Below, in pieces: positions 3,200 to 63,387 of a stretch of DNA of 64,000 nt. The notes under the pieces were generated by a model. The model did no database searches and was not told where the DNA came from. It saw only the letters and a list, made by a program, of their open reading frames with translations. The translations under genes and the position numbers were made by a program. Where the stretch lies: NCBI GenBank assembly GCA_964626145.1, contig CAZVBZ010000004.1, forward strand, positions 23,235 to 87,234, read 5' to 3'. Within the stretch, counting starts at the first letter, position 1, and each line of letters starts with the position of its first letter. This DNA is from an uncultured Muribaculaceae bacterium. GTDB taxonomy: Bacteria; Cyanobacteriota; Vampirovibrionia; Gastranaerophilales; Gastranaerophilaceae.

Positions 3200-4510
3200 A
3201 TGTACACACTAGCATTACAGCAGAATAAAAATTACACCAAACTGATACTTTATTCGGTTTATGCAATGCTTTTAACCTTTATGGTGGCGCCGCCTAGGTA
3301 TATTCTTTATCAGGACAGCCTCCTCGCCATGGCAACCCCTGTACAATATGGACATGTATCTACAGATGTATTTACAACCAAAGCCGGCGAGGAGATGTAT
3401 AATCAAAATTTAATGCTTGCGGAAAAAGAGAGATGGAACAACTCAACAAAAACAAGATATAAAAATGGACTAATTTTAACAGTTAAACCAGGCGTAAAAC
3501 ATATAAAACTCACGCGACGCTCTCAAGCAGGCAATGTGAAAATAAACGTAGTAGAGATGAATAAAAAAATCAATCCAAACCTTGAAGTTGCCCCCGTTTT
3601 GGCTTCTGATACTTTATCAAGGAAAGCAAATATAAAAACACTCGCAGCAAAAGGAAACGCGATTGCCGCAATTAATGCAACCTATTTCAAACCACAAACC
3701 GGCGTTCCTCTCGGCACTTTAATGATAGACAAAAAAATTTATACAGGTCCGATTTACAACAGAGTAGCACTAGGAATAAAAAATGACAGCTATATAATGG
3801 ACAAATACCAACTTAACGCGGTGTTAAAATACAAAAAAATGTCAACAAAAATCGATAACATAAATCAGCCGCGAATGCTTTCAACATATTTACTTGTTTA
3901 CACAAAAGACTGGGGACAAAATAGCCCAACCGCCCCAAATTATGGCATAAATATAGCCATTGAGGATGGTAAAATTACAAAAGTTTCAAACGGTTCTTTA
4001 ACTATACCCCAAAACGGATTTGTTGTATCCGGACCCAAATCAAAGTTAGAACCGTTTTTTAATGCACAAATGCACGATGAAAAACAACCTTTTCTAGCCA
4101 ATCTTACAAAAGGTCGAAAAATTGAACTTGAAATAAAACAAAACGAAAACTGGGAAGATGTAAACCACATTGTGAGCGGCGGACCCTTCCTTGTAAAAGA
4201 TGGAAATATTTACGTTGACGTAAAAGAAGAAAAACTTCTTTCCATTACCGGACGAAACCCACGTACTGCAATAGGATACACAAAAGACAACGAATTTATA
4301 ATGATGACAATTGACGGACGAGAACAAACATCGGTCGGCATGACTCTCACAGAAACCGCGCGCCTAATGAAAGAGTTTGGCTGCGTCTGGGCGATGAACC
4401 TTGATGGCGGCGGTTCAAGCGTAATGCTGGTAAGTAACAAAATTGTAAATAACCCGAGCATTCAAGGCGGAATAGCAATTTCCAACGCATTAATTATTCG
4501 CGAAAGTTAA
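3200..4510 (+). CDS. phosphodiester glycosidase family protein (NAGPA-like)
   Basis: C-terminal NLDGGGSS motif typical of this family; N-terminal TM/signal segment; RBS aggag 6 nt upstream. Confidence 0.6.
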   Translation: MYTLALQQNKNYTKLILYSVYAMLLTFMVAPPRYILYQDSLLAMATPVQYGHVSTDVFTTKAGEEMYNQNLMLAEKERWNNSTKTRYKNGLILTVKPGVKHIKLTRRSQAGNVKINVVEMNKKINPNLEVAPVLASDTLSRKANIKTLAAKGNAIAAINATYFKPQTGVPLGTLMIDKKIYTGPIYNRVALGIKNDSYIMDKYQLNAVLKYKKMSTKIDNINQPRMLSTYLLVYTKDWGQNSPTAPNYGINIAIEDGKITKVSNGSLTIPQNGFVVSGPKSKLEPFFNAQMHDEKQPFLANLTKGRKIELEIKQNENWEDVNHIVSGGPFLVKDGNIYVDVKEEKLLSITGRNPRTAIGYTKDNEFIMMTIDGREQTSVGMTLTETARLMKEFGCVWAMNLDGGGSSVMLVSNKIVNNPSIQGGIAISNALIIRES

Positions 4511-4604
4511 AACAAAACATTATTACCTTGAATATTTTATTTATTTTGCGTGCTAAAAGATAAGTTAGTAGTTAGCCTAATATTTGTTGAACCAGGACAT
4601 ACGC

Positions 4605-4633
4605 TTGAAATCCCTATCAAATTTTGATAAAAT
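4605..4633 (+). promoter_or_regulatory. near-consensus sigma70-type promoter (TTGAAA-N17-TAAAAT) of pilin-like copy 1
   Basis: -35 TTGAAA at 4605-4610, 17-nt spacer, -10 TAAAAT at 4628-4633. The same architecture is upstream of copy 2. Confidence 0.55.
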
Positions 4634-4674
4634 GTAATAGTTAAAAGTACAAATGCAATAAAAAAGGATAGAAA

Positions 4675-5572
4675 ATGAAGTACGATAATTTTACTTTTAA
4701 AGACGCAAAAAACGTTTTTAGCTCGCTTTTAATGCCCCCCCCCCCCTACTGCCACAAGGGTTTCCAGGGTTTTAACTAAAAGCAAAAAACATGGTTGGAC
4801 TCTTGCAGAAACGTTAATTACTTTAACAATTATTGGAGTAATAGCTGCAATGACAGTGCCCAATTTAATGAGCAATTTTAGAAAATCGCAAACCGAGACA
4901 GGAATAAGGGTTGCTTATAAAATTTTAAACGATGCACTCAAAATGCCAATTGCTACAGAAGAAGCGCCTGATATGCCTACAATGATAATAGATTCACAAA
5001 CAGCCCCCGATATAACCGACGAATGGGACTCAATAATTAACCACTTTGCAACAAACTATCTCGTTCCATATTTAAAAGTTGCAAAGACATGTAAATCAGG
5101 AATAAGCACTGAAGATTGTGGTATACTGTATCCCAGCAAGCAAATTGATGGAAGCCCAACGCCACCAGATATGATGATGTATAATCCAAAGGACAAATAC
5201 AGAATTCAGCTCACAAATGGTATGCAAATTGGGGTTGGGAAGTACACGCCACAGGAGGGTGGTGACGGTTTTACTTTTTTAGTAGACATTAATGGTAAAA
5301 GCGGTCCAAATAGGCTAGCACACGACCAATTTTATTTTGCAATATCCGCAGCGACATGTAACACTACTAATCAATATTATTGCGACAAACATAATTTCAT
5401 ACAGGGGGGATTGCCTTATAGGAGTAGTACATCTAATAATATGTTTGATACCAGCATAAATCGGTGCATTAATAATATTGAATTCTGGGGTACTAAAGGG
5501 GCAGATTGTGCCGCGGTACTGCAACAAAACGGCTGGAAGATACCGGATAATTATCCGGTGAAAAAGTGGTAA
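4675..5572 (+). CDS. type IV pilin-like protein copy 1 (prepilin-type N-terminal cleavage/methylation domain); leader ORF and pilin body are out of frame by +1 at a poly-C tract
   Basis: RBS aaagga plus ATG at 4675 opens a leader (MKYDNFTFKDAKNVFSSLLMPPPP) that runs into C12 and stops at 4777-4779. The +1 frame continues ...TATRVSRVLTKSKKHG|WTLAETLITLTIIGVIAAMTVPNL..., a classic G|xxxxE prepilin site with a hydrophobic helix. The table ORF 4850..5572 begins inside that helix and so cannot be the true start. C-terminal GADCAAVLQQNGWKIPDNYPVKKW is shared with the paralogs. Confidence 0.75.
4735..4746 (+). repeat. homopolymeric C12 tract directly after ATG 4732
   Basis: Read directly from the sequence; 11 C (or 14) would place ATG 4675/4732 in frame with the prepilin body. 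Confidence 0.9.
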
Positions 5573-5658
5573 GCGTAAACATTTTTATACTTTTATAGAC
5601 AATGCTTTTTTTTACCTGTAAAATAAATAAGTAATAGATATAAGAGGAATGTGATTAT

Positions 5659-7032
5659 ATGTATAACGTTGCAATAGTTGGTGCCGGTCCTGCTGGTATT
5701 TTTGCTGCTTTAGAAATAACAAAGCTAAAACAAGACTGGAAAGTAATTTTAATTGAAAAAGGACAAAAGATTGAAAAAAGAAAATGCCTTTTAAGAGAAG
5801 GTTATGAAAAATGTCCAGGTTGCAAAAAATGCGGCTTGTTATGCGGCTGGGGCGGCGCTGGAGCGTTTTCTGATGGAAAACTGACTCTTACACCAGATGT
5901 TGGCGGACATTTGATAGATTATATGTCAAGAGAAAAAGTTGAAGATTTAATTGGTTATTCTGATAGTTTATATCTTAAATTTGGCGCAACTGATGAAGTA
6001 TTTGGTACAGATAAAAAAGTTTTTAGAGAAATTGAAAGAGAAGCGGCACTTGCTGAGCTTAAGCTCATTCATTCTCCAGTGAGACACCTCGGAACCGAAA
6101 GAAGTCTTGATGTTTTAAAAGGTATGCAAGATTATTTAAACGAAAAAATTACAATTTTAAATAATGTTGCCGCAGAACATCTTATCGTAGAATGCGAACA
6201 AGTAAAAGGTATTGTTCTTGATAATGGAGAAACAATTCGCGCAGAATATACTATAATTGCACCAGGGAGAGAAGGTGCTGACTGGCTTACAAAAGAATTT
6301 GACAAAAATAAAATAGGTTTTGTTAACAATGCTGTCGACGTAGGTGTAAGGGTTGAACTTCCTGCCCCTGTTTTTGAACCATTAACTTCAAAGCTTTATG
6401 AATCAAAACTTGTATATTATTCACCAACATTTGGAGACGAAGTAAGAACTTTTTGTATGAATCCAAATGGTGAAGTTGTTCAAGAAAATTACAACGGAAT
6501 TTCTACAGTAAACGGTCATAGTTATGCCGAAAAAACCACAAACAACACAAACTTTGCTCTTTTGGTAAGCAAAAAATTTACAGAACCGTTTAAAGAGCCT
6601 ATAGCTTACGGTCAACATGTTGCAAGTCTTGCAAACATGCTTGCCGGAGGTGTTCTTGTTCAAAGATTTGGTGATTTACTTGAAGGACGCCGCTCAACGC
6701 CGGAAAGAATTAAATCCAGCATAATAACTCCGACATTAACTTGCGCAACTCCTGGAGATTTAAGTCTTGTTATTCCATATAGACAAATGTTAAGCATAAT
6801 CGAAATGATTTACGCACTTGACAAAATTGCTCCTGGAACAGCTTCTAGATACACTCTGCTTTACGGTATAGAAGTTAAGTTCTATTCAGCAAGAGTTAAA
6901 CTTACAAACGAACTTGAAACAGAAGGTGTTAAAAATCTTTTTGCTATCGGTGACGGTGCAGGAGTAACGAGAGGATTAATTCAAGCCTCTGCGTCAGGTG
7001 TTCACGCTGCAAGAACAATTTGTTCAAGATAA
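5659..7032 (+). CDS. FAD-dependent oxidoreductase (COG2509-like) with a Cys cluster
   Basis: N-terminal GxGxxG (VAIVGAGPAGIFAA); CPGCKKCGLLCGWGG cysteine motif; second dinucleotide-binding motif near the C-terminus (AIGDGAG). Confidence 0.65.
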   Translation: MYNVAIVGAGPAGIFAALEITKLKQDWKVILIEKGQKIEKRKCLLREGYEKCPGCKKCGLLCGWGGAGAFSDGKLTLTPDVGGHLIDYMSREKVEDLIGYSDSLYLKFGATDEVFGTDKKVFREIEREAALAELKLIHSPVRHLGTERSLDVLKGMQDYLNEKITILNNVAAEHLIVECEQVKGIVLDNGETIRAEYTIIAPGREGADWLTKEFDKNKIGFVNNAVDVGVRVELPAPVFEPLTSKLYESKLVYYSPTFGDEVRTFCMNPNGEVVQENYNGISTVNGHSYAEKTTNNTNFALLVSKKFTEPFKEPIAYGQHVASLANMLAGGVLVQRFGDLLEGRRSTPERIKSSIITPTLTCATPGDLSLVIPYRQMLSIIEMIYALDKIAPGTASRYTLLYGIEVKFYSARVKLTNELETEGVKNLFAIGDGAGVTRGLIQASASGVHAARTICSR

Positions 7033-8975: not shown

Positions 8976-9476
8976 TTAAATATTTTTTATGTTAACAAAT
9001 TGATTTTCTCTTGAAATAGCAACTTTACCAGAACGCACTAACTCTTTTATGCCCATCGGTTTTAAAAGCTCAATAAGAGAATTAATTTGTCTTGAATCAC
9101 CAAAAGCCTGAATTGTATAGGTTTTATTTGTAACATCTATTATTTTTGCGTCAAAAATTTCAGCAATTCTCAATATTTCAGAGCGAGCCTCATCTTTTGC
9201 TGTAACTTTACACAAAATAAGTTCTCTTTCTATATAATCCAAAGAATTTAAATCAACAACTTTTAAAGTCGGAATTAACCTATTTAATTGTTTTGTAATT
9301 TGTTCAATAACAGAATCTTCACCATAAGTTATAACTGTCAAGCGAGAGTAATCGTTATCAAGCGTAGGTGCAACGGTAAGGCTTTCTATATTATAACCTC
9401 TACCTGAAAATAAATCCGAAACTCTTGACAAAACTCCTGATTCATTTCTTACTAAAACTGATATAGTATGTTTCAT
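8976..9476 (-). CDS. ACT-domain protein, acetolactate synthase small-subunit-like
   Basis: MKHTISVLVRNESGVLSRVSDLFSGRGYNIESLTV matches IlvH/IlvN ACT domains; no adjacent large subunit. Confidence 0.6.
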   Translation of the reverse strand: MKHTISVLVRNESGVLSRVSDLFSGRGYNIESLTVAPTLDNDYSRLTVITYGEDSVIEQITKQLNRLIPTLKVVDLNSLDYIERELILCKVTAKDEARSEILRIAEIFDAKIIDVTNKTYTIQAFGDSRQINSLIELLKPMGIKELVRSGKVAISRENQFVNIKNI

Positions 9477-9552
9477 TTCCAGTCCTCTATTTTAATTAAT
9501 TAATTTATATTGTATCATAAAAAAGTCTATTCATATAACAAGGTTTAAAATA

Positions 9553-10140
9553 ATGATAAAACTTGGTTTAACAGGAAATATTGCCGCAGGAAAATCAGAA
9601 GTTGAAAAAATATTCAAAAAACTAGGAATTCCAACAATATGCGCAGATTCAATAGTACATAATATTTTTAACAATAATGAAACTGTTAAAAAATCAATAG
9701 TAGAAACATTTAGCGGTTATGATGTATTGACAGAACAAAAATTAGACAGAAAAAAATTAGGTAAAATTGTTTTTTCTGACGCAAATTTAAAAAAGAAGTT
9801 AGAAAAAATTATTCACCCTATTGTTATTAAAGAAATTTTTAACTTTTTTAATAAAGAAAAAGATAAAAATGTAATTGTTGTAGATATTCCACTTTTGTTT
9901 GAAGGACATTTTGAATATTTATTTGACAAAATATTACTAGTTTACGCAAATGACAAAATACGTTTTGAAAGAATAAAAAAAAGAAACGGATTTAGTGACG
10001 AATATATAGAAAAAATTATGAAATCTCAAATGAATCAAGAAGAAAAGAAAAAATTATCTGATTTTGTTATAATCAATGAAAACCAAACACTTAATGATTT
10101 ACAAAAAGACGTTAAACATATTATAAAAGAACTAAAATGA
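9553..10140 (+). CDS. coaE: dephospho-CoA kinase
   Basis: P-loop GLTGNIAAGKSEV and CoaE family similarity. Confidence 0.85.
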   Translation: MIKLGLTGNIAAGKSEVEKIFKKLGIPTICADSIVHNIFNNNETVKKSIVETFSGYDVLTEQKLDRKKLGKIVFSDANLKKKLEKIIHPIVIKEIFNFFNKEKDKNVIVVDIPLLFEGHFEYLFDKILLVYANDKIRFERIKKRNGFSDEYIEKIMKSQMNQEEKKKLSDFVIINENQTLNDLQKDVKHIIKELK

Positions 10141-10424
10141 TACTAGAAAGTTTTTCAAAAATATTAAAAAGAACAAATTCTAAAAAATACATAAAACTAC
10201 TTACTTTATGGTTAAAAAAAAGAATATCTAAACCTGCAAAAACAAAAGTAGACAGAATTATTCAAAGTGAATGCTGGTTCGCTAAAAATAAATATGGAGA
10301 TTTTATAATAATTCCAAAATCACAAACAGGAAGAAATTTAACGCAATCTTTATATAATTATGTTAAAAGTGTCGAAAATGTAGATGTTTCAAGATTTTTG
10401 CACAACAATAATAAAATAAAATAA
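10137..10424 (+). CDS. hypothetical small basic protein
   Basis: 95-aa ORF overlapping the coaE stop (ATGA); no recognisable domain. Confidence 0.3.
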   Translation: MILESFSKILKRTNSKKYIKLLTLWLKKRISKPAKTKVDRIIQSECWFAKNKYGDFIIIPKSQTGRNLTQSLYNYVKSVENVDVSRFLHNNNKIK

Positions 10425-10709
10425 AAAAATATTTGTATTATTTTTTATGTAGATAACTTGTAGAAAAGTTTTATAAAACTGTCTTATTTTTAGTTAAAAT
10501 TTTGTATAAAAAATTTTTTATACAAAAAAATAATAACAAATTACAACTTTTATTACATTTATCTACAAATTCTTTACAATTTAAAACTCAATAATAACAA
10601 TACTTTTAGTAATTTATCTACATAAAATTTAATCTATTATTACTATTATTATTTTTATATATTATTATTAATATAAATAATCAATTAGAAATGCAGTTAA
10701 GGAGTAAAC
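10425..10709. promoter_or_regulatory. putative oriC / DnaA-box cluster upstream of dnaN
   Basis: ~285-bp, >80% AT intergenic region. It contains three perfect TTATCTACA 9-mers at 10448-10456 (inverted), 10559-10567 and 10614-10622. It also contains a perfect 26-bp palindrome TTTGTATAAAAAA|TTTTTTATACAAA at 10501-10526. Confidence 0.5.
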
Positions 10710-11831
10710 ATGATTTTTACAATAGAAAAAGAATCTTTGCTGAATAATTTAAGAATTGTTGAAAAAGCAAGTTTGTCAAAAGGTATTCAACCTGTTTTAT
10801 CAAATATTTTAATAGAAGCAAAAGATAACGAAGTACGTTTTTCGGCTACAGATTTAGATTTGTCAATTCAAGCTGCTACAACAGCAGTTGTTGAAACAGA
10901 TGGAGCAGTAACACTTCCTGCTAAAAAATTGAGCGACATTGTTTCAAGACTTCCCGAAAAACCAGTTGTTTTTAATATAGATTTAAATACTAATGTTGCA
11001 AGTATTACATGCGGTAATGCGAAATTTGAACTTGTCGGTATAGCAGCAAGTGAATTTCCAAACGTTGTTGATAAATCAATATTAGCGGATAAAGAATCTT
11101 TTGAAATAGAAGTAAAACCGTTTGTAAAAGGTATAAAACATACTGTTTATGCTGCAGCAAACTATGAAAATAGAAATATTATTAGTGGTGTTTTTTGTTC
11201 AATAGATTCAGAAAAACTAGAAATGGCTGCAACAGATGGAAATAGATTAACGAGAATTGTTGAAATTATTAAAAATGATGAACAAAAATCAAAATCTTTT
11301 GTTATTCCATCAAGAACACTTCAAGAAGTTTTGCGTATTGTATCGCTAGTTAACGATACTGTTTTAGAAATTTATGCAGATGTGTCAAGAATTATAGTTA
11401 AAACTAATTCGGTAATACTTTCTTCTAGACTTCTTGAGGGTGAATATCCTCCGTACAAACAGCTTATACCTACATCTTGTGCAAAAGAAGCAGTCGTAGC
11501 AAGAGAAGATTTAATAAATGCTTTGGAGCGAGTTTCTGTAATGGTAAATGAAAGAACAAATATTATTAAATTTACTTTTGCTAAAGAGTCATTGACTCTT
11601 AAAGCAGATACTCCTGAAACAGGCGCTTCAGAAGATGTTATTTCAATTGAATTTTCAGATAGTGAAGAACTTGTTATTGCTTTTAACTACAAATATGTGT
11701 TAGATTCATTAAAAATAATGGAAAGTAAAAATGTAAAAATAGGTTTGGGTGGCAGTTTGTCTGCTACAATATTTAAACCAGATTCAGAAGATGATTATCT
11801 GTGTTTAATAATGCCTATTCAGATAAGATAA
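10710..11831 (+). CDS. dnaN: DNA polymerase III beta sliding clamp
   Basis: Family similarity over the full length; RBS aaggag upstream. Confidence 0.9.
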   Translation: MIFTIEKESLLNNLRIVEKASLSKGIQPVLSNILIEAKDNEVRFSATDLDLSIQAATTAVVETDGAVTLPAKKLSDIVSRLPEKPVVFNIDLNTNVASITCGNAKFELVGIAASEFPNVVDKSILADKESFEIEVKPFVKGIKHTVYAAANYENRNIISGVFCSIDSEKLEMAATDGNRLTRIVEIIKNDEQKSKSFVIPSRTLQEVLRIVSLVNDTVLEIYADVSRIIVKTNSVILSSRLLEGEYPPYKQLIPTSCAKEAVVAREDLINALERVSVMVNERTNIIKFTFAKESLTLKADTPETGASEDVISIEFSDSEELVIAFNYKYVLDSLKIMESKNVKIGLGGSLSATIFKPDSEDDYLCLIMPIQIR

Positions 11832-11840
11832 GAGGTAAAA

Positions 11841-12773
11841 ATGAAAGTTACAGTAAAGGTTCCGGCTACAACAGCTAATTTAGGTCCGGGATTTGATTGT
11901 TTTGGTTTAGCATTGCCGATATATAACGAAGTTACTATAGAAGAAACCGTAATGCCTGGGACAGGAATTGAAATTTCAATTCTTTCTAATAATCAGGAAG
12001 AACTTGATATTATGTCTATTCCAACCGACAAAGAAAATATTGTTTATAAAGCAGTTGAGCTTTTATATAATTCTATAGGACAAGTTCCAAGTGAACTTAA
12101 AATTACAATAAAATCAGATATTCCTATAGCTAAAGGTTTGGGAAGTTCGGCATCTGTTATTGTTGGTGGACTCGTTGCTGCAAATGAACTTTTGGGGCAT
12201 CCAGCTGATGAAGCAGCTCTTTTGTCTATAGCAACAGAAGTTGAAGGTCATCCAGATAATGTAACACCTGCTATAGTTGGTGGTATGGTTATTTCTTCCC
12301 AAGAAGAAGATGGAAGTATTGTTTATAGAAAATTAGATTGGCCACAAGATTGGAAAATAATGGTTTGTGTACCTGATTACGAACTTCCTACTGATATAGC
12401 TCGTTCTGTTATTCCAAAAGAAGTTCCATTAAAAGACGCTTCTTTTAACTTAAGAAGAAGTGCTATGCTTGTACATGCTGTACATGAAGAAGATGAAGAT
12501 TTAATGAGGCTTGCTTTAACAGATAAACTTCATCAACCCTACAGAATGAAACTTGTACCAGGATTAAGTGAAATTATTGAAAATTTAAAACATGAACAAG
12601 ATGTTTTAGGATGTGTTTTGAGCGGTGCTGGTCCTTCTGTAATAGTTATAACCAAAGGAAATTCGCAAGAAAGAATAAAAGATATTGTAAAAAATACCTG
12701 GACTGATTTGAATGTAAAATCAGATATACAGGTTTTGAAAGTTGAAGAACAGGGCGCTGTTGTTTTAAATTAA
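11841..12773 (+). CDS. thrB: homoserine kinase
   Basis: GHMP kinase motifs (PATTANLGPGFD; KGLGSSAS). Confidence 0.85.
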   Translation: MKVTVKVPATTANLGPGFDCFGLALPIYNEVTIEETVMPGTGIEISILSNNQEELDIMSIPTDKENIVYKAVELLYNSIGQVPSELKITIKSDIPIAKGLGSSASVIVGGLVAANELLGHPADEAALLSIATEVEGHPDNVTPAIVGGMVISSQEEDGSIVYRKLDWPQDWKIMVCVPDYELPTDIARSVIPKEVPLKDASFNLRRSAMLVHAVHEEDEDLMRLALTDKLHQPYRMKLVPGLSEIIENLKHEQDVLGCVLSGAGPSVIVITKGNSQERIKDIVKNTWTDLNVKSDIQVLKVEEQGAVVLN

Positions 12774-16179: not shown

Positions 16180-17127
16180 ATGACTTTACTCCAAATTGAA
16201 AAATTAAATTTAGGCTTTAACCTGTCCAGTGGCTTTAAACAGGTTATTTATGATGTTTCACTTTCTGTAGAAAAAGGGCAAATGCTTGCTATAGTTGGTG
16301 AATCTGGATGTGGAAAAACTCTAACAGCTATGAGTATTTTAAATCTTCTGCCAAAGAATGCAGAAATAAAATCAGGTCAAATTTTATTTAACAATGAAAA
16401 TTTACTCCAAAAAACAGATTTTCAAATGCAAAAAATTAGAGGAAAAAATATTGCACTTATTCCTCAAGACCCTATGACAGCGTTAAATCCTTTATATACT
16501 ATAGAAAATCAACTTTTAGAAGTTATTAAACTTCATCAACCTGATGAAAAAAATCCTCAACAAATAGCTTTAAAAGCTTTAGAAGACGTAAAAATTCCAA
16601 ATGCATTTGAACGATTAAAATCTTATCCGCATGAACTTTCTGGAGGAATGAAACAACGTATTATTATTGCAATGGCACTTGCATGCAAAGCTGATTTAAT
16701 AATAGCTGATGAGCCGACAACTGCATTAGACGTAACAGTTCAATCTCAAATAATGATACTTTTAAATCAAATAAAAGAAACAAGAAATACAGCGATTATA
16801 TTGATTACACATGATTTAGGACTTGTTGCAGAAAATGCAGATTTTGTGGCTGTTATGTATGCTGGTAATATTGTTGAATATGCACCAAAAAACGTGTTAT
16901 TTAAAAATCCGCTTCATCCTTATACAAAAGCATTATTTATGGCTTTACCGGATATGAATAGTGAAAAGCTAATTCCAATTGATGGTCATCCACCATCAAT
17001 TGATGAAACAATTTATGGTTGTCAGTTTCATCCGCGATGTAAATGTAAAAAGGAAATTTGTTTTCAAAAAAAACCTCTGGTAATTAAAAAAGAAAACTCT
17101 TTTGTTTCTTGTTGGCTTTATAAATAA
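16180..17127 (+). CDS. ABC transporter ATP-binding protein (OppD/DppD-type, orphan)
   Basis: Walker A GESGCGKT, signature LSGGMKQR, Walker B IIADEPT, oligopeptide-type C-terminal tail. No permease or binding-protein gene nearby. Confidence 0.8.
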   Translation: MTLLQIEKLNLGFNLSSGFKQVIYDVSLSVEKGQMLAIVGESGCGKTLTAMSILNLLPKNAEIKSGQILFNNENLLQKTDFQMQKIRGKNIALIPQDPMTALNPLYTIENQLLEVIKLHQPDEKNPQQIALKALEDVKIPNAFERLKSYPHELSGGMKQRIIIAMALACKADLIIADEPTTALDVTVQSQIMILLNQIKETRNTAIILITHDLGLVAENADFVAVMYAGNIVEYAPKNVLFKNPLHPYTKALFMALPDMNSEKLIPIDGHPPSIDETIYGCQFHPRCKCKKEICFQKKPLVIKKENSFVSCWLYK

Positions 17128-54696: not shown

Positions 54697-56267
54697 TTTG
54701 CAATAATCCTATTTAATAATTCATAAGCGTATTCAATTTTAAACAATAAAACTAATCCCCCATAAACCAAGCTAATGAACACAAGCATAACAAAAAGGTT
54801 AATTATTAAGGGGAAATTAACTGGTTCAAGAGCTTTGTAAAGTCCAAAACAAATTCCATATGTCAAAATTGCAATAGCAAACATTTTTAATAAATCGATA
54901 AAATATTTTCTAAACCCAATATTTATTTTTTTGCGGATAAAATAACCAAGAACCGCCGCATTCCACAATGTTACAAGCGAAGTAGAAAGAGTAATTCCGC
55001 CAATACCAAGCCGTGGAACCATAAACCAATTTAAAATAAATTTTAGTACAATTGAAGCAAAGGCAACGTAAAAAGGCGTTTTAGAGTCATTAAAAGCGTA
55101 ATAAACTCTTGTAATTGAATCTCTAAAAACATACGGTAGAAGCGACACAGATAAAAAGATTAAGGCTTCTGAAACCATAAACGTTGCGTCAGAACCAAAT
55201 GCGCCCCGTTCAAAGACAAATTTTATACCATCATGTCCAAGAAGAATAATTGCAATTAAAATTGGAAAACTTGCAAAATTAAGCAACCCAACACCTTTAT
55301 TAAAATAATATTTTATTCCCTCAAAATCTTTTTCCGCTACCAGTCTTGAAAATAAAGGAAACAAGGGAACGAGGAATGCCGTTACAAGTATTCCTACTGG
55401 AAATTGAAAAATTCTATTTGCGTAACCAATAGAGGACCAGGCGCCTTCTTTTAATGAGGATGCAAAAAACATATCCACGTAAATATGAATTTGTCCTACT
55501 GTAGAGCTTAAAATTGCAGGAAAAAGTAATTCTAGAATATTTTTAAATTGTTGATTATTAAAAAAATCAAAATTTGGTCTAAACCTAAACCCAAGCCGTC
55601 TTATTTTGGGTAGCTGAAATAAAAACTGGCAAAATGCGCCAACCGTAGTTGCCACGGCAAGCATTGTACCGTTTGTGTCGTTTTTAGCGAGGGCAATAAT
55701 TATAATTATTGCCAAACTCATTAAAATTGGAGATATGTTTGGTATCATGAATTTTTTATACGAAACAAGAATTCCATAATAAATTCCGACAACTCCACCG
55801 ATTATAAAGACGGGTGACATTATTTTTAAATGTTGCGAGGCAAGATTTACAAGAGCTGGAGAACCGTTGGAAATTATTACCTGCATAATAACGTCTGAAA
55901 AAGTGAAAATTAAAACACCGAGAGCGACAAAAACAATTAAAGTTGCTGTTAAAAAGGTGTTAAACAATTTATTTAAACGTGCATCAGCGCAATTACTACC
56001 CTGTGGAATAAGTTTTGAAAAAACGCTCACAACGGCACTATGAAAAGGACCACCGACTCCACCTAGCAAAATCAAAGCCAAAGATGGAATTTGATAAGCA
56101 TAAAAATAAGAGTCTGAGACTAACCCGGCACCATAAAAATTTGCGATTACTATGTCTCTTAAAAAACCTACTAATTTGCTTATTACGATAACTACTGCTA
56201 TCATCCAGGCAGATTTTAAAAGACTTTCTGTTTTGTCAACAGAGTTATTTTGCATTTTTACTTCCAT
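54684..56267 (-). CDS. murJ: lipid II flippase MurJ
   Basis: MviN/MurJ family; 14 predicted TM helices. Confidence 0.9.
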   Translation of the reverse strand: MEVKMQNNSVDKTESLLKSAWMIAVVIVISKLVGFLRDIVIANFYGAGLVSDSYFYAYQIPSLALILLGGVGGPFHSAVVSVFSKLIPQGSNCADARLNKLFNTFLTATLIVFVALGVLIFTFSDVIMQVIISNGSPALVNLASQHLKIMSPVFIIGGVVGIYYGILVSYKKFMIPNISPILMSLAIIIIIALAKNDTNGTMLAVATTVGAFCQFLFQLPKIRRLGFRFRPNFDFFNNQQFKNILELLFPAILSSTVGQIHIYVDMFFASSLKEGAWSSIGYANRIFQFPVGILVTAFLVPLFPLFSRLVAEKDFEGIKYYFNKGVGLLNFASFPILIAIILLGHDGIKFVFERGAFGSDATFMVSEALIFLSVSLLPYVFRDSITRVYYAFNDSKTPFYVAFASIVLKFILNWFMVPRLGIGGITLSTSLVTLWNAAVLGYFIRKKINIGFRKYFIDLLKMFAIAILTYGICFGLYKALEPVNFPLIINLFVMLVFISLVYGGLVLLFKIEYAYELLNRIIAKWKK

Positions 56268-57888
56268 ACAATTCGATATACACCTTAACTGGTTTACACT
56301 TATTATTATCTAAAGGATAAAAGAAATATACCTTGTTGTCACCTAAATTTAAGTATTGTGAAATATCAACAAAATATTTTTTACTTAAACTTGGTTGCAT
56401 TTTTAAATCAAATTCTTTTCCGTTTATTACTACTTTAAGCTCTGAGTACCCAAAATGATTTTCAACAACTATTTTGGCATGTTTTTGGGTTAGATTAAAA
56501 TCAAATAAAGCGGCATTTTTATCAGCTTCGCAAGAAAGCGCTATTGGTAAAAGTACTATATTTGTACCGGAATAATAATGTTGGAAAATTTCATCAAAAG
56601 TTTTACCTTCTTTTGCCATTGCGCCGGCACCAAACTGGCTCATTCCAACTCCATGTCCATATCCGCCGCCAAAAGCGGTTATATTAGTAAGTTCTCCGTT
56701 TTCAAATTCTTGTTCAAAAACGGCATTTGCGCTTGGAAGTGCTTTGCCTTTTTCTTTAAAAAGTCTTCTTATTGTTAATTCTTTTTCAACTTTGAATATT
56801 TCTTTATCTGTAATAATTTCCATTGAAACTATTTTTCCAGAATCGCCACGTTTTGTAACTTTTATTTCTTTAAGTGAACCAAAATCTTCTGGATTTTTCA
56901 GTTCCGGTGAGCAATAACCCGTTTTATAAGCTGCCTGTAAACCTGATTTTAAAACCATCTCAAGTTCTTCTTTTGTCCAATGTTTTTGCCACCTAAAATA
57001 TGGTGAGTCATTGTCGTAAGTTTTAGGTGTAGATTTATAAAAATTCAGTGCTTTTTGCTCCGTTTCAAGAGAAGGTGTTTTTTCGTTGTCAGGAATAGCT
57101 TTTAGATATGGGTATATTTCAGATTTTTTGGGCAAAAAAGCATTATCGTAACTTTCTGTATATCCGCCGGCGGTTGAGCTATAAAGAGCTAAAATCAAAT
57201 CATTTTCGTATAAACCAACCATTCCTCTTGTTTCTTTCACTGCTCGTGTAGCAAAATCAGACTCGGTGTTTGCCCCAAAATAAACCTGACATGCAACGCT
57301 ATCGCACACATCAAACTCGTGATATTTTCGTTCGCGCGGACGGAGCGTATAGTTTCTAGCGGCAATTGCTTGAACTTTTAATGCTTCTATACCAAATCTT
57401 ACTGGCATTTCATTTGGAACAACGCCCAAAAGATATGTTTCAAGATTGAGTATGTTGTTTGTCAGAAACATGTTTTCTTTATTTTGAGGTTTTACAAGCT
57501 CTATTTTCCCTCGGTACAAAGCTGGTTTTCCAGCACGTTTAAGGTTATAAATTCCAAGTAATCCGTCTTGTTCCGTGCTTAAAACTAATGGTGGTTTAAT
57601 GGAGCTAGCTAAAAGTTTGTCGTTTTCATATACGTTAAAGAGATTATCTTTGATTGTAATTTTTACAGGAATTTGTGCAGAAAACTCTTTAACAATGTTG
57701 CCGGATGATTTTTCTGTTAAAGTTAGTTTTTTTGTTGCGTAGAATACGTTTTCAGAATAATAATACCGTTGAAAACTGTTGTCGCTAATTCCGACACTAA
57801 TAATCGGATTTGTTGTGACAGGAGCTGCTATTGCTGCGGCAGTTCCTAAAAAAAACGATAACAAACAAAGTATAAATTTTTGTTTCAT
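56245..57888 (-). CDS. SpoIID/LytB-domain protein
   Basis: Signal peptide plus a C-terminal SpoIID amidase-enhancer domain. Confidence 0.7.
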   Translation of the reverse strand: MKQKFILCLLSFFLGTAAAIAAPVTTNPIISVGISDNSFQRYYYSENVFYATKKLTLTEKSSGNIVKEFSAQIPVKITIKDNLFNVYENDKLLASSIKPPLVLSTEQDGLLGIYNLKRAGKPALYRGKIELVKPQNKENMFLTNNILNLETYLLGVVPNEMPVRFGIEALKVQAIAARNYTLRPRERKYHEFDVCDSVACQVYFGANTESDFATRAVKETRGMVGLYENDLILALYSSTAGGYTESYDNAFLPKKSEIYPYLKAIPDNEKTPSLETEQKALNFYKSTPKTYDNDSPYFRWQKHWTKEELEMVLKSGLQAAYKTGYCSPELKNPEDFGSLKEIKVTKRGDSGKIVSMEIITDKEIFKVEKELTIRRLFKEKGKALPSANAVFEQEFENGELTNITAFGGGYGHGVGMSQFGAGAMAKEGKTFDEIFQHYYSGTNIVLLPIALSCEADKNAALFDFNLTQKHAKIVVENHFGYSELKVVINGKEFDLKMQPSLSKKYFVDISQYLNLGDNKVYFFYPLDNNKCKPVKVYIELYGSKNAK

Positions 57889-57921
57889 AACTTGTTTATA
57901 TTAAAACAAACAAATAAAAAT

Positions 57922-58263
57922 TTATACAACTTTAAACTTACGGTTTTTGAATTCTAGCGTTTTAATAATGCTGCTTTCTTCATTTGGATAAATATTAAAA
58001 CTTTTGTCATAATTAAGCAAATTAATCGCCGCAAAAACCTCTGCCTCCAAATTACACAATGAAATTTTATTTGTTTTTGTAATTTTTTTTAAAAATTTTA
58101 AAGTTGTGTTTTTAATTTTTGATACCCCGGAAAGATTGACAATAAAAGACTTTTCTGGGCGTAGCATTATGTGTGTCAAAACATTATTAACATCTTCAAT
58201 GTTAAATTCTTCTAACATACAATTAAATATTAAATTTTCTTCATATTCTTTAATATGAAGCAT
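57922..58263 (-). CDS. STAS-domain protein (anti-sigma-factor-antagonist-like)
   Basis: 113 aa with a SpoIIAA-like pattern (FIVNLSGVSKIKNTTLKFL...). Confidence 0.45.
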   Translation of the reverse strand: MLHIKEYEENLIFNCMLEEFNIEDVNNVLTHIMLRPEKSFIVNLSGVSKIKNTTLKFLKKITKTNKISLCNLEAEVFAAINLLNYDKSFNIYPNEESSIIKTLEFKNRKFKVV

Positions 58264-58517
58264 CGCCTAATCCAAATTAATAATACGTTACTGTTTACAA
58301 TACTATTTTAACAATATTTTTAATTTATTAATATTGGCTATTAGTTCAAATTTTTTAAAACTAAAGTTTAATAAAAGAATAAATATTTTTATATTGTTAT
58401 GTTGTCCAAAAATCCAGAAAATTACCTCAAATTTATTATTCTAACCTTTAAAACGACCTTATGGGTAATGATTGTTTTTATTAACAAATAAAAAATAAAA
58501 AGAAAAAGGAGAAAATA

Positions 58518-59093
58518 ATGAAACATTCAGTACAAGGTAGTGAAACAGAAAAAAACCTTATGATGGCTTTTGCCGGAGAATCTCAAGCTAGAAATCGTTA
58601 TACATATTACGCTTCAAAAGCAAAAAAAGAAGGCTATTTGCAACTCTCTAATATATTTTTAGAAACAGCAGAAAACGAAAAGGCTCATGCAAAAGTTTTT
58701 TTGGAATATCTAGAAAATGAGCCAGTAGCTATAACGGCAAAATTTATGACAGGTTTAAAAGATACAAAGGAAAATTTGACATTTGCAATCGAAGGAGAAC
58801 ACGAAGAAAATTCAAAGCTTTATCCATATTTTGCAGAAGTTGCTGAGAGCGAAGGTTTTTCAGATATTGCAGAGTCGTTCAAACATGTTGCAGAAGTAGA
58901 AAAATTTCATCAGCAAAGATTTGAAAAATTGTTAGAAAATCTTGAACAAGACAAGGTTTTTAAAAAAGAAAATAAAGTCGAATGGATATGCTTAAACTGC
59001 GGTTTTCATGTAATTAGCAAAGAAGCCCCTCAAAAATGCCCTTCATGCAAACATCCACAAGATTTTTTTGAACTTTGGTGTGAGAATTATTAG
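58518..59093 (+). CDS. rbr: rubrerythrin
   Basis: Ferritin-like diiron E...ExxH motifs and a C-terminal rubredoxin-like CxxC...CxxC. Confidence 0.9.
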   Translation: MKHSVQGSETEKNLMMAFAGESQARNRYTYYASKAKKEGYLQLSNIFLETAENEKAHAKVFLEYLENEPVAITAKFMTGLKDTKENLTFAIEGEHEENSKLYPYFAEVAESEGFSDIAESFKHVAEVEKFHQQRFEKLLENLEQDKVFKKENKVEWICLNCGFHVISKEAPQKCPSCKHPQDFFELWCENY

Positions 59094-61245: not shown

Positions 61246-61500
61246 GCGAATACTTGTAGCAAAAGCCTATTTCAAGCTTTTTCTGTTCAGTTCAAACAGT
61301 TTACCACAACAGCAAAATATTTAATTTTCAATGCTTGATTAAATTTTATCAAGAACAAATTTTTAAATCAATACTTAAAATAAAAACCCCATAGTTGTGG
61401 GGTTTAGGAGTTTAAGTGTTAAGGAGTTTGTTTTTTTAGACGAAAAACCATTAAAAAAGTTTCAAATTGCGAGTGTAAAATTTTGAGTTATAATTTATGT

Positions 61501-63387
61501 ATGTTTAATTATGATGTAATTGTAGTTGGCGCGGGGCATGCCGGTTGTGAAGCCGCGGTATCTGCCGCAAGATTGGGTCAAAAGGTTCTTTTGACAACAC
61601 TTAATATAGAAAATATTGCACTTATGCCGTGTAATCCTGCCGTGGGAGGTCCGGCAAAGTCTTGTCTGGTGCGGGAAATTGATGCACTCGGTGGAGTTAT
61701 GGGTGTTGTTGCAGATGCAACTTATATTCAAATGAAAATGCTTAATCGCTCCAAAGGTCCTGCAGTTCGCGCTTTGCGCGCTCAGTCCGATAAAAAAGAA
61801 TACATGCGCTTTATGCGCCATTTAATTGAATCAGAAAGCAATTTGAGCCTTAAACAATGTATGGTTACAGCTTTGCTGGTTGAAAATGGTAAAGTCTGTG
61901 GAGTCGTTGACGAATTAGGGTTGGAATACCGCGCTAATGCTGTAATTTTAACTACCGGTACTTCTCTCGATGGTAAAATTTGGATTGGTTTGCAGTCTAT
62001 TTGCGCAGGACGGTTGGGCGAAGCCGCCGCCGTTGGGCTGTCAGATAGTTTGAGAGCGTGTGGGCTAAACGTTCAAAAGCTTAAAACTGGAACCCCGGCG
62101 CGAGTTGATAGTCGTACAATTGATTATTCTAAAATGACGGTTCAGCCAGGCGATGACGAACTTAATTTCTTTTCCTTTTTGCCGAATCGCCCTGTGCGAC
62201 CGCAAATTCCTTGTTACTTAACAAGAACTAACGCACGAACGCATGAAGTTATTCGCCAAAACCTTGATAAATCGCCAATGTACACTGGGCTTATCCACGG
62301 AAAAGGTCCTCGTTATTGCCCTTCTATCGAAGATAAAATCGTACGCTTTGCCCAGAACCCGTCTCACCATATTTTTATTGAGCCAGAGGGCAAAGACACC
62401 TACGAAGTTTATGTACAAGGCTTTTCAACCAGTTTGCCGGCAATGGCACAAATAGAAATGCTGCATACCTTGCCCGGATTGGAAAAAGTTCATGTAATTA
62501 AACCAGCTTATGCCGTTGAGTATGATTATGTGCCCGCGGTGCAACTTTCGCATACGCTTATGACGAAAAAAATTCAGGGATTATTTTGCGCCGGTCAAAT
62601 TAATGGTACAAGCGGCTATGAAGAAGCAGCCGCACAAGGGTTGATTGCCGGAATCAACGCGTCTTTGTACAATGATAATCGAGAGATGATAACGCTTTCA
62701 CGTATGTCGTCGTATATTGGTACGCTTATTGATGATTTAGTTACAAAAGATATTGATGAACCTTACAGAATGCTTACCTCTCGTTCTGAGTACAGATTGA
62801 TTTTGCGCCAAGATAATGCTGATATGCGACTTACTGAAATAGGGCATAAGGTTGGGCTAATAAGCGATTTGCGCTTTAAGCTGTTTAATGATAAAAAAAT
62901 TGCCGTAGAAAATGAAATTGCGCGCTTAAAAAGCACAAAAGTTTCACCAACAGAAGAAGTTTTGTCGATTTTGGCAAAATACGGGGAAAGTCTTGATAGA
63001 GGCAAAAAACTTGCAGAGCTTCTAAAACGTCCGACATTAAATTATGACGCGTTAAAAGAACTTGACCAAGAAACGAAAGATTTAAATTTATCCCGAGAGG
63101 TGTATGAGCAAGCAGAGATTGAAATTAAGTACGATGGCTATTTAAAACGTCAGCAAGAACAAATTGATATTTCAGATAAATTGGAAAAGATAAAAATTCC
63201 CGCGGATATTGATTATCGAGCGATTGCGCAGATTTCAACTGAAACAAAGGATAAACTTGAAAAAATTCGTCCTGTTACACTGGCGCAAGCATCGCGTATT
63301 GGGGGCGTCAAACCCGCGGATATATCTGTTTTGATGGTTATTTTAGAAACGCATAAAGCTCCAACTATTACTCAAAGTAAAGCTTAA
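61501..63387 (+). CDS. mnmG: tRNA uridine 5-carboxymethylaminomethyl modification enzyme MnmG (GidA)
   Basis: MFNYDVIVVGAGHAGCEAA FAD motif and full-length MnmG similarity; the table ORF begins at 61483. Confidence 0.95.
   Translation: MFNYDVIVVGAGHAGCEAAVSAARLGQKVLLTTLNIENIALMPCNPAVGGPAKSCLVREIDALGGVMGVVADATYIQMKMLNRSKGPAVRALRAQSDKKEYMRFMRHLIESESNLSLKQCMVTALLVENGKVCGVVDELGLEYRANAVILTTGTSLDGKIWIGLQSICAGRLGEAAAVGLSDSLRACGLNVQKLKTGTPARVDSRTIDYSKMTVQPGDDELNFFSFLPNRPVRPQIPCYLTRTNARTHEVIRQNLDKSPMYTGLIHGKGPRYCPSIEDKIVRFAQNPSHHIFIEPEGKDTYEVYVQGFSTSLPAMAQIEMLHTLPGLEKVHVIKPAYAVEYDYVPAVQLSHTLMTKKIQGLFCAGQINGTSGYEEAAAQGLIAGINASLYNDNREMITLSRMSSYIGTLIDDLVTKDIDEPYRMLTSRSEYRLILRQDNADMRLTEIGHKVGLISDLRFKLFNDKKIAVENEIARLKSTKVSPTEEVLSILAKYGESLDRGKKLAELLKRPTLNYDALKELDQETKDLNLSREVYEQAEIEIKYDGYLKRQQEQIDISDKLEKIKIPADIDYRAIAQISTETKDKLEKIRPVTLAQASRIGGVKPADISVLMVILETHKAPTITQSKA

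Follow-up and report, generated by a model that had tools for sequence, protein, structure and literature searches.

A candidate chromosomal replication origin directly upstream of dnaN in a Gastranaerophilales bacterium

Results

An AT-rich gap between ORF95 and dnaN

The gene order in this part of the window (the whole 64-kb stretch of DNA that was analysed) runs, from left to right, tsf, rpsB, ilvN (minus strand), then coaE, ORF95, an intergenic gap of 285 bp, dnaN, thrB, a lipoate ligase gene and a dicarboxylate symporter gene (Table 1). The gap has a GC content of 13.7%, compared with roughly 22–44% in 1-kb segments elsewhere, and is thus much more AT-rich than the genes, as an earlier note on this DNA had described. 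That note also had dnaN preceded by coaE and a small basic ORF rather than by dnaA, which is what we find, and its placing of mnmG about 50 kb off in the same window agrees with the position of that gene at 61483–63387, 51 kb from the gap. DnaN is 87–90% identical to its counterparts in bins labelled Candidatus Gastranaerophilales or Gastranaerophilaceae; identity falls to 58–63% for more distant bins, among them one labelled Cyanobacteria. The organism is a Gastranaerophilales bacterium (Melainabacteria, the sister group of Cyanobacteria).

The window was extended leftward by 9 kb using a Logan contig (L011) identical to it over 4716 nt, giving 73 kb of examined DNA; on the right, a search via MnmG yielded matching contigs of just 2.6 kb. 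Searching with tblastn, using an E. coli DnaA query, revealed no dnaA in the window, the 9-kb extension or the related loci L001–L009. The query can be taken to work, because it recovered dnaA directly upstream of dnaN in a gammaproteobacterial control locus (L010). No RNA family in Rfam matched positions 9000–12000 at E ≤ 1, and a terminator scan of the region gave no hits.

Table 1 Predicted features of the ORF95–dnaN region, in window coordinates
Feature	Coordinates	Strand	Description
coaE (dephospho-CoA kinase)	9553–10140	+	Stop codon overlaps ORF95 start
ORF95	10137–10424	+	95-aa small basic protein, pI 10.3; upstream of the candidate origin in most related loci
Candidate oriC	10425–10709		Entire ORF95–dnaN intergenic region; sole dense TTNTNNACA cluster in 73 kb; GC3-skew sign change bracketed there
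DnaA box B1	10448–10456	-	TTATCTACA; core TT.T..ACA invariant in alignment A1; full-core site at this position in 10/11 loci
DnaA box B2	10459–10467	-	TTTTCTACA; 11 bp start-to-start from B1; core invariant in A1
Perfect palindrome, 28 bp	10500–10527		TTTTGTATAAAAAATTTTTTATACAAAA; made of inverted weak boxes B3 and B4
Weak DnaA box B3	10503–10511	-	TTTTATACA; left palindrome arm; box-like in most close relatives, e.g. TTATCTACA in L001
Weak DnaA box B4	10516–10524	+	TTTTATACA; right palindrome arm; full core in 7/8 close loci (TTTTATACA in six, TTTTGTACA in L137)
DnaA box B5	10559–10567	+	TTATCTACA
DnaA box B6	10570–10578	+	TTCTTTACA; 11 bp start-to-start from B5; TT.T..ACA invariant in all nine A1 sequences
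DnaA box B7	10614–10622	+	TTATCTACA; nearest the unwinding element and pointing toward it; core invariant in A1
Spacer, 11 nt, AT-only	10623–10633	+	TAAAATTTAAT; B7 to trios; length conserved, sequence varies between loci
DnaA-trio array, eight repeats	10634–10657	-	Top CTA TTA TTA CTA TTA TTA TTT TTA; bottom 3'-GAT AAT AAT GAT AAT AAT AAA AAT-5'
Predicted DNA unwinding element	10636–10681		Least stable 40-mer of the window (10636–10675) and longest AT-only run (10644–10681, 38 nt)
dnaN (DNA polymerase III beta clamp)	10710–11831	+	TIGR00663, E 1e-86; transcribed away from the candidate origin

A cluster of DnaA boxes in two opposed arrays

Three perfect copies of a single 9-mer, one of them inverted, had been noticed in the gap. 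These are the sites B1, B5 and B7, which read TTATCTACA, one mismatch from TTATCCACA; they are the only copies in the window and fall within 175 bp, against an expectation of 0.76 per window. Relaxing the box to TTNTNNACA, the core common to all copies, gave seven sites in the 285-bp gap, where dinucleotide shuffles of the same segment contain 0.9 ± 0.9 and never reached seven (0/2000). When density was scanned over the 73 kb, the gap region emerged as the sole such cluster, with nine TTNTNNACA sites per 300 bp compared with four in the next best region.

The boxes form two opposed arrays, B1–B3 on the minus strand and B4–B7 on the plus strand. Successive box starts are 11, 44, 13, 43, 11 and 44 bp apart, and as most of these distances are multiples of ~11 bp, most boxes may lie on one face of the helix. 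Between the arrays sits a perfect palindrome, described previously as 26 bp long and AT-only. Its actual length is 28 bp, and it is not AT-only because it contains a G and a C, only the central 18 bp being made up of A and T. We rejected its proposed role as the unwinding element on grounds of stability and conservation: 40-mers over it have a predicted stability of around -38.5 kcal/mol, compared with -32.8 kcal/mol at 10636–10675, and only the right arm is well conserved. The palindrome is instead the junction between the two arrays, a pair of inverted weak boxes. The second longest perfect palindrome of the window, GGCAATAATTATAATTATTGCC (22 bp), lies far to the right at 55692–55713.

The boxes are conserved in related loci

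We aligned the dnaN-upstream regions of eight related genomes with that of the window (alignment A1, nine sequences); two further genomes, each represented by duplicate contigs, were added later. The invariant columns of A1 fall on TT.T..ACA of B1, B2, B6 and B7. Related loci carry 5–9 TTNTNNACA sites in the 330–400 nt upstream of dnaN, and in the eight closer loci nearly all seven positions are occupied by a full-core site, to within 1 nt. The more distant loci L007–L009 keep the right-hand boxes, while their left half is rearranged or not positionally conserved. A position matrix from 77 sites (percent) reads T91 T96 W T97 N T84 A96 C86 A95. The predicted box consensus of the clade is thus TTWTNTACA, which departs from the classical stringent TTWTNCACA at position 6 only.

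Some of these genomes have an extra gene between ORF95 and the boxes (L135 10353–11063, L136 2087–2797, L001 4997–5731). In L135 and L136 it encodes a 236-aa protein with a faint match to the prepilin-type N_methyl family, and the architecture downstream of it is unchanged. A separate case is L003 (positions 1–173 of contig JAZTXF010000120.1, 3159 nt), whose dnaN is 89% identical to that of the window. There, about the last 30 nt before the start codon are retained, and all sequence further upstream has given way to unrelated DNA of higher GC content. This breakpoint coincides with the right edge of the AT-rich element, and could reflect a misassembly or a real rearrangement at this site.

A box, spacer, trios and an AT-rich tract

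The 40-mer at 10636–10675 has the lowest predicted duplex stability in the 64-kb window (-32.8 kcal/mol by a nearest-neighbour estimate; next best, -35.4). Since the least stable DNA and the longest AT-only run both fall there, the unwinding element is best placed at 10636–10681 rather than at the palindrome. It overlaps an array of eight consecutive NAN trios, six of them G/AAT, on the bottom strand. Runs of five or more (C/T)TA repeats occur once in the 73 kb and arose in 17/5000 shuffles of the gap; a box plus trios arose in 0/5000. Within the array, a 20-nt block, TTATTACTAYTATTATTTTT (10637–10656), is kept in every related locus save for one T-to-A change in L005. Of the ten related loci, nine have exactly 14 nt between B7 and this block and L002 has 13 nt, while the distance from the block to the dnaN ATG varies from 66 to 152 nt. 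With a fixed distance to B7 and a variable one to the start codon, the block goes with the box and not with the gene. A single trio position varies, and there CTA takes the place of TTA, which turns AAT into the consensus GAT.

This arrangement corresponds to the known "basal unwinding system", a box-spacer-trio module (Richardson 2016, Pelliciari 2021). The published rule for the module comprises a box with no more than two mismatches, a spacer of 0–16 nt (mode 10–13) and at least three NAN trios with the consensus 3'-GAT-5' (PMC8287927), a perfect trio being written 5'-CTA-3' on the complementary strand (PMC8235120). Here, B7 has a single mismatch and is oriented 5'-TTATCCACA-3' toward the trios, with the polarity of the B. 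subtilis and S. elongatus entries; its 11-nt distance to the first trio and the number of trios both fall within the published limits. The second abutting box and the GC-rich clamp of ~4 bp are absent from this site, where the spacer TAAAATTTAAT is AT-only and not box-like. Those two elements are common, being present in 57% of origins, and are not obligatory. We therefore assign B7, the spacer, the trios and the AT-rich tract to a putative basal unwinding system. As the NAN pattern is undemanding in DNA that is 86% AT, the main grounds for assigning the trios are their conservation and their fixed spacing.

A second AT-only run of 28 nt (10407–10434) marks the left edge of the box array and overlaps ORF95 at its 3' end; the 40-mer at 10409–10448 (-35.6 kcal/mol), which ranks third in the window for low stability, lies there too. 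Loci whose left flank differs do not conserve this run, and we therefore did not treat it as a second unwinding element. A second unwinding site to the left of B1 was likewise rejected: judged by eye, the minus-strand DNA that follows B1 is A-rich and not trio-like, and it is unconserved between loci.

With a base composition of 86% AT, one may ask whether the gap is an ordinary AT-rich spacer whose repeats and palindrome arose by chance from low complexity. The 20-mer TTATTACTAYTATTATTTTT does occur in at least 80 metagenome loci and, among the matches listed, all are unrelated low-complexity DNA. However, in none of the 80 examined is the 20-mer preceded by a box at 14 nt, followed by dnaN or accompanied by a box cluster. 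Seven boxes, and a box plus trios, were never seen in the shuffles described above, and the elements hold their positions in genomes whose DnaN is just 58–63% identical. We consider a chance origin of these elements extremely improbable.

Strand asymmetry switches at the gap

As raw skew is confounded by gene orientation, G-C skew was taken at third codon positions (GC3), always on the plus strand. Left of the gap, GC3 skew was -0.22 for plus-strand genes and -0.09 for minus-strand genes; to the right, the corresponding values were +0.18 and +0.24. The sign changes between ORF95 (-0.17) and dnaN (+0.35), and genes in the 9-kb leftward extension have a skew of -0.26. Per-gene means were -0.19 on the left (17 genes) and +0.20 on the right (43 genes; Mann-Whitney p = 8e-7), with negative values in 12 of the 17 left genes and positive values in 40 of the 43 right genes. 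The leading strand is G-rich in most bacteria, and a negative-to-positive change read 5' to 3' is therefore the signature of an origin, not a terminus. The same switch is found at the dnaN-upstream gap in L001, L002, L004, L005 and L009; it is faint in L006 and lacking in L007.

Plotted over the 73 kb, cumulative G-C traces a V whose lowest point, at 9539, is ~0.9 kb to the left of the gap; as the examined span of the replicon is 73 kb, this minimum is a local one. The earlier note had asked whether the minimum would fall at about 10.5 kb of the window, and within these 73 kb the switch is seen nowhere else.

With regard to gene orientation, the DNA left of the gap (window -5130 to 1002 and 3200–7032) contains many long plus-strand genes, including an addA/addB-like helicase-nuclease pair, which would be transcribed head-on to a leftward fork. 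On the right, ~62% of coding bases run in the same direction as the fork.

The shape of the skew bears on the number of origins. With 73 kb of the genome seen, the gap could be half of a bipartite origin, or the chromosome could have several origins of which this is one; a further box cluster or unwinding region would then lie elsewhere. Both possibilities have precedents: H. pylori and B. subtilis have bipartite origins (PMC8235120; PMC3479198), and some cyanobacteria, such as Synechocystis, fire from multiple origins (PMC7198777). Against this, the 73 kb contain no second cluster, and boxes, trios and AT-rich element together make up a complete unwinding module at this one site. A clear V of the kind seen here is what single-origin chromosomes typically show, whereas multi-origin cyanobacteria have irregular profiles (PMC7198777). 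We regard a bipartite or multiple arrangement as improbable.

A rearrangement roughly symmetric about the gap

Gene order around the gap differs between two closely related Gastranaerophilales genomes, one represented by L135 and the other by L137 and L138. We compared L135 1–3042 and 17861–20294 with L137 1–2624 and L138 9889–13073; the right side of L135 has the gene order of the window. The gatB-prfA block lies +6.5 kb to the right of the gap in L135 and on the left side, inverted, in the other genome. Conversely, the block spoIID-113aa-117aa-rubrerythrin is on the left side in L135 and lies +6.6 kb to the right, also inverted, in L137/L138. An inversion of ~13–15 kb, roughly symmetric about the gap, with its left endpoint ~6–8 kb and its right endpoint 6.6 kb away, would produce this block swap. 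Inversions that are symmetric about the origin are known from the evolution of bacterial genomes, and the predicted event lends modest, independent support to an origin at this position. In the window itself, the spoIID-rubrerythrin block lies 46–48 kb to the right (56245–59093).

The presence of a box cluster directly upstream of a replication gene can also be explained without an origin, if the cluster serves dnaN as a promoter under DnaA control or as a titration site, comparable to the B. subtilis clusters outside oriC, and replication starts elsewhere, for example next to dnaA. DnaA binds clusters outside oriC as well, and regulates transcription (PMC7198777); the neighbourhood of dnaA lies outside the examined DNA, and weak promoter-like hexamers are present in the AT-rich block. 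Promoter-like sites, however, number 14 where 12.0 ± 3.4 are expected, showing no enrichment. A regulatory role would leave other observations unaccounted for. The GC3 sign change falls at this site whichever strand the genes are on, and related loci show it too; the inversion is roughly centred on the site. The conserved block keeps its distance to B7 and not to the dnaN start codon, and the least stable DNA of the window and the only trio array coincide here. On this evidence, a purely regulatory cluster appears distinctly improbable.

Discussion

A probable DnaA-dependent origin upstream of dnaN

We propose that the gap between ORF95 and dnaN is the DnaA-dependent chromosomal oriC of a Gastranaerophilales bacterium, located directly upstream of dnaN as in cyanobacteria, and put the probability of this reading at roughly 85%. 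An origin in this position, with no dnaA beside it, had been the central suggestion of the earlier note, and it is upheld by the box cluster, its positional conservation in ten independent related loci, the box-trio module and the GC3 switch. As dnaA was not located, we infer DnaA dependence from the box and trio sequences, and the presence of DnaA in the genome is an assumption.

A mechanism can be sketched by applying the Bacillus subtilis, Helicobacter pylori and Synechococcus elongatus models to the sequence features observed here. DnaA would bind the seven boxes, of consensus TTWTNTACA, in the two opposed arrays. The rightward array ends in B7, which would point the assembly at the unwinding module. 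From B7, a DnaA-ATP filament could extend across the 11-nt spacer onto the bottom-strand trios 3'-GAT AAT AAT GAT AAT AAT-5' (10634–10657), and in doing so open the adjoining 38-nt AT-only tract (10644–10681), where the helicase would be loaded. One fork would then travel leftward via coaE, ilvN and rpsB, and the other rightward via dnaN.

Comparison with known origins

Cyanobacterial genomes carry dnaA and dnaN at separate locations, and the experimentally mapped origin of S. elongatus PCC 7942 lies near dnaN at the shift point of the skew (PMC7198777). A dnaN-linked origin without an adjacent dnaA is thus the usual cyanobacterial layout and is not unusual for this lineage. The box-trio module has been reported to occur in most bacterial origins and to function in S. 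elongatus (PMC8287927), where it reads 3'-AAAAGGTGT AAAAGGTGT CGGG GATGATGATGAC-5' (PMC8287927 supplement). The candidate origin shares with that of this sister lineage its position next to dnaN, the lack of an adjacent dnaA, the GC-skew shift and the box-spacer-trio module. There are also differences. The S. elongatus box consensus is TTTTCCACA, a sequence with no copy in the gap and a single one in the window, at 16309; the clade studied here has TTWTNTACA, with T rather than C at position 6 (T in 84% of 77 sites). In S. elongatus the trios follow two abutting boxes and a CGGG clamp, compared with a single box and an AT-only 11-nt spacer here, and they are mostly GAT there and mostly AAT in the present locus. 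Finally, the S. elongatus origin was mapped experimentally, whereas the present one is a prediction from sequence.

The B. subtilis module is 3'-AATAGGTGT TTAGGTGT CCGG GATGATAATGAAGATGAT-5' (PMC8287927 supplement). Like the B. subtilis incC region (boxes 6 and 7, DnaA-trios and an AT-rich 27-mer), the candidate origin is ordered 5'-box, spacer, CTA/TTA repeats, AT-rich tract-3' and lies directly upstream of dnaN. The spacer following the best box is 11–14 nt here and 12 nt in B. subtilis, with at least six trios. B. subtilis differs in that dnaA is immediately upstream and the origin is bipartite around it; its GGCC clamp and the second box by the trios are both missing from the present site.

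In E. coli, oriC consists of two opposed box sub-arrays with 2-bp gaps between neighbours, and the unwinding element flanks the array that points toward it; the origin also uses 13-mer repeats, GATC sites and IHF. The candidate origin resembles it in its opposed sub-arrays, in the 2-bp gaps (11 bp start-to-start) and in having the unwinding element beside the array that faces it. The E. coli origin is apart from both dnaA and dnaN and adjoins mnmG (gidA), whereas mnmG is 51 kb away in our window. E. coli scores weakly for the box-trio module (PMC8287927). In the searchable library used for the literature search, we found no described origin from the Melainabacteria or Gastranaerophilales.

ORF95 and implications

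ORF95 is found upstream of the candidate origin in most related loci, including those with DnaN 58–63% identical. The protein has 24 close homologues and matches no family in Pfam or NCBIfam; its AlphaFold model is confident (pLDDT 90.7), with a fold matching no solved structure. It is a speculative and rather unlikely proposal that ORF95 acts at the origin as a factor specific to this lineage, perhaps as a small regulator of initiation that binds DNA, and that it belongs to a conserved ORF95-oriC-dnaN cassette with a shifted box specificity (T at position 6) and an unwinding module without the GC clamp.

The locus is built like known bacterial origins, and the understanding of bacterial origins is unchanged by it. 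What it offers is a base-resolved model of an origin, with boxes, trios and unwinding element, for an uncultured lineage of the human and animal gut. It would represent a natural variant of the box-trio module, in which one box precedes an AT-only spacer and the sixth box position is T. A defined origin would allow growth rates to be estimated from metagenome coverage (the peak-to-trough ratio) and genome bins to be oriented and checked. The presence of oriC at dnaN, away from dnaA, suggests that this layout is older than the split of photosynthetic cyanobacteria and Melainabacteria.
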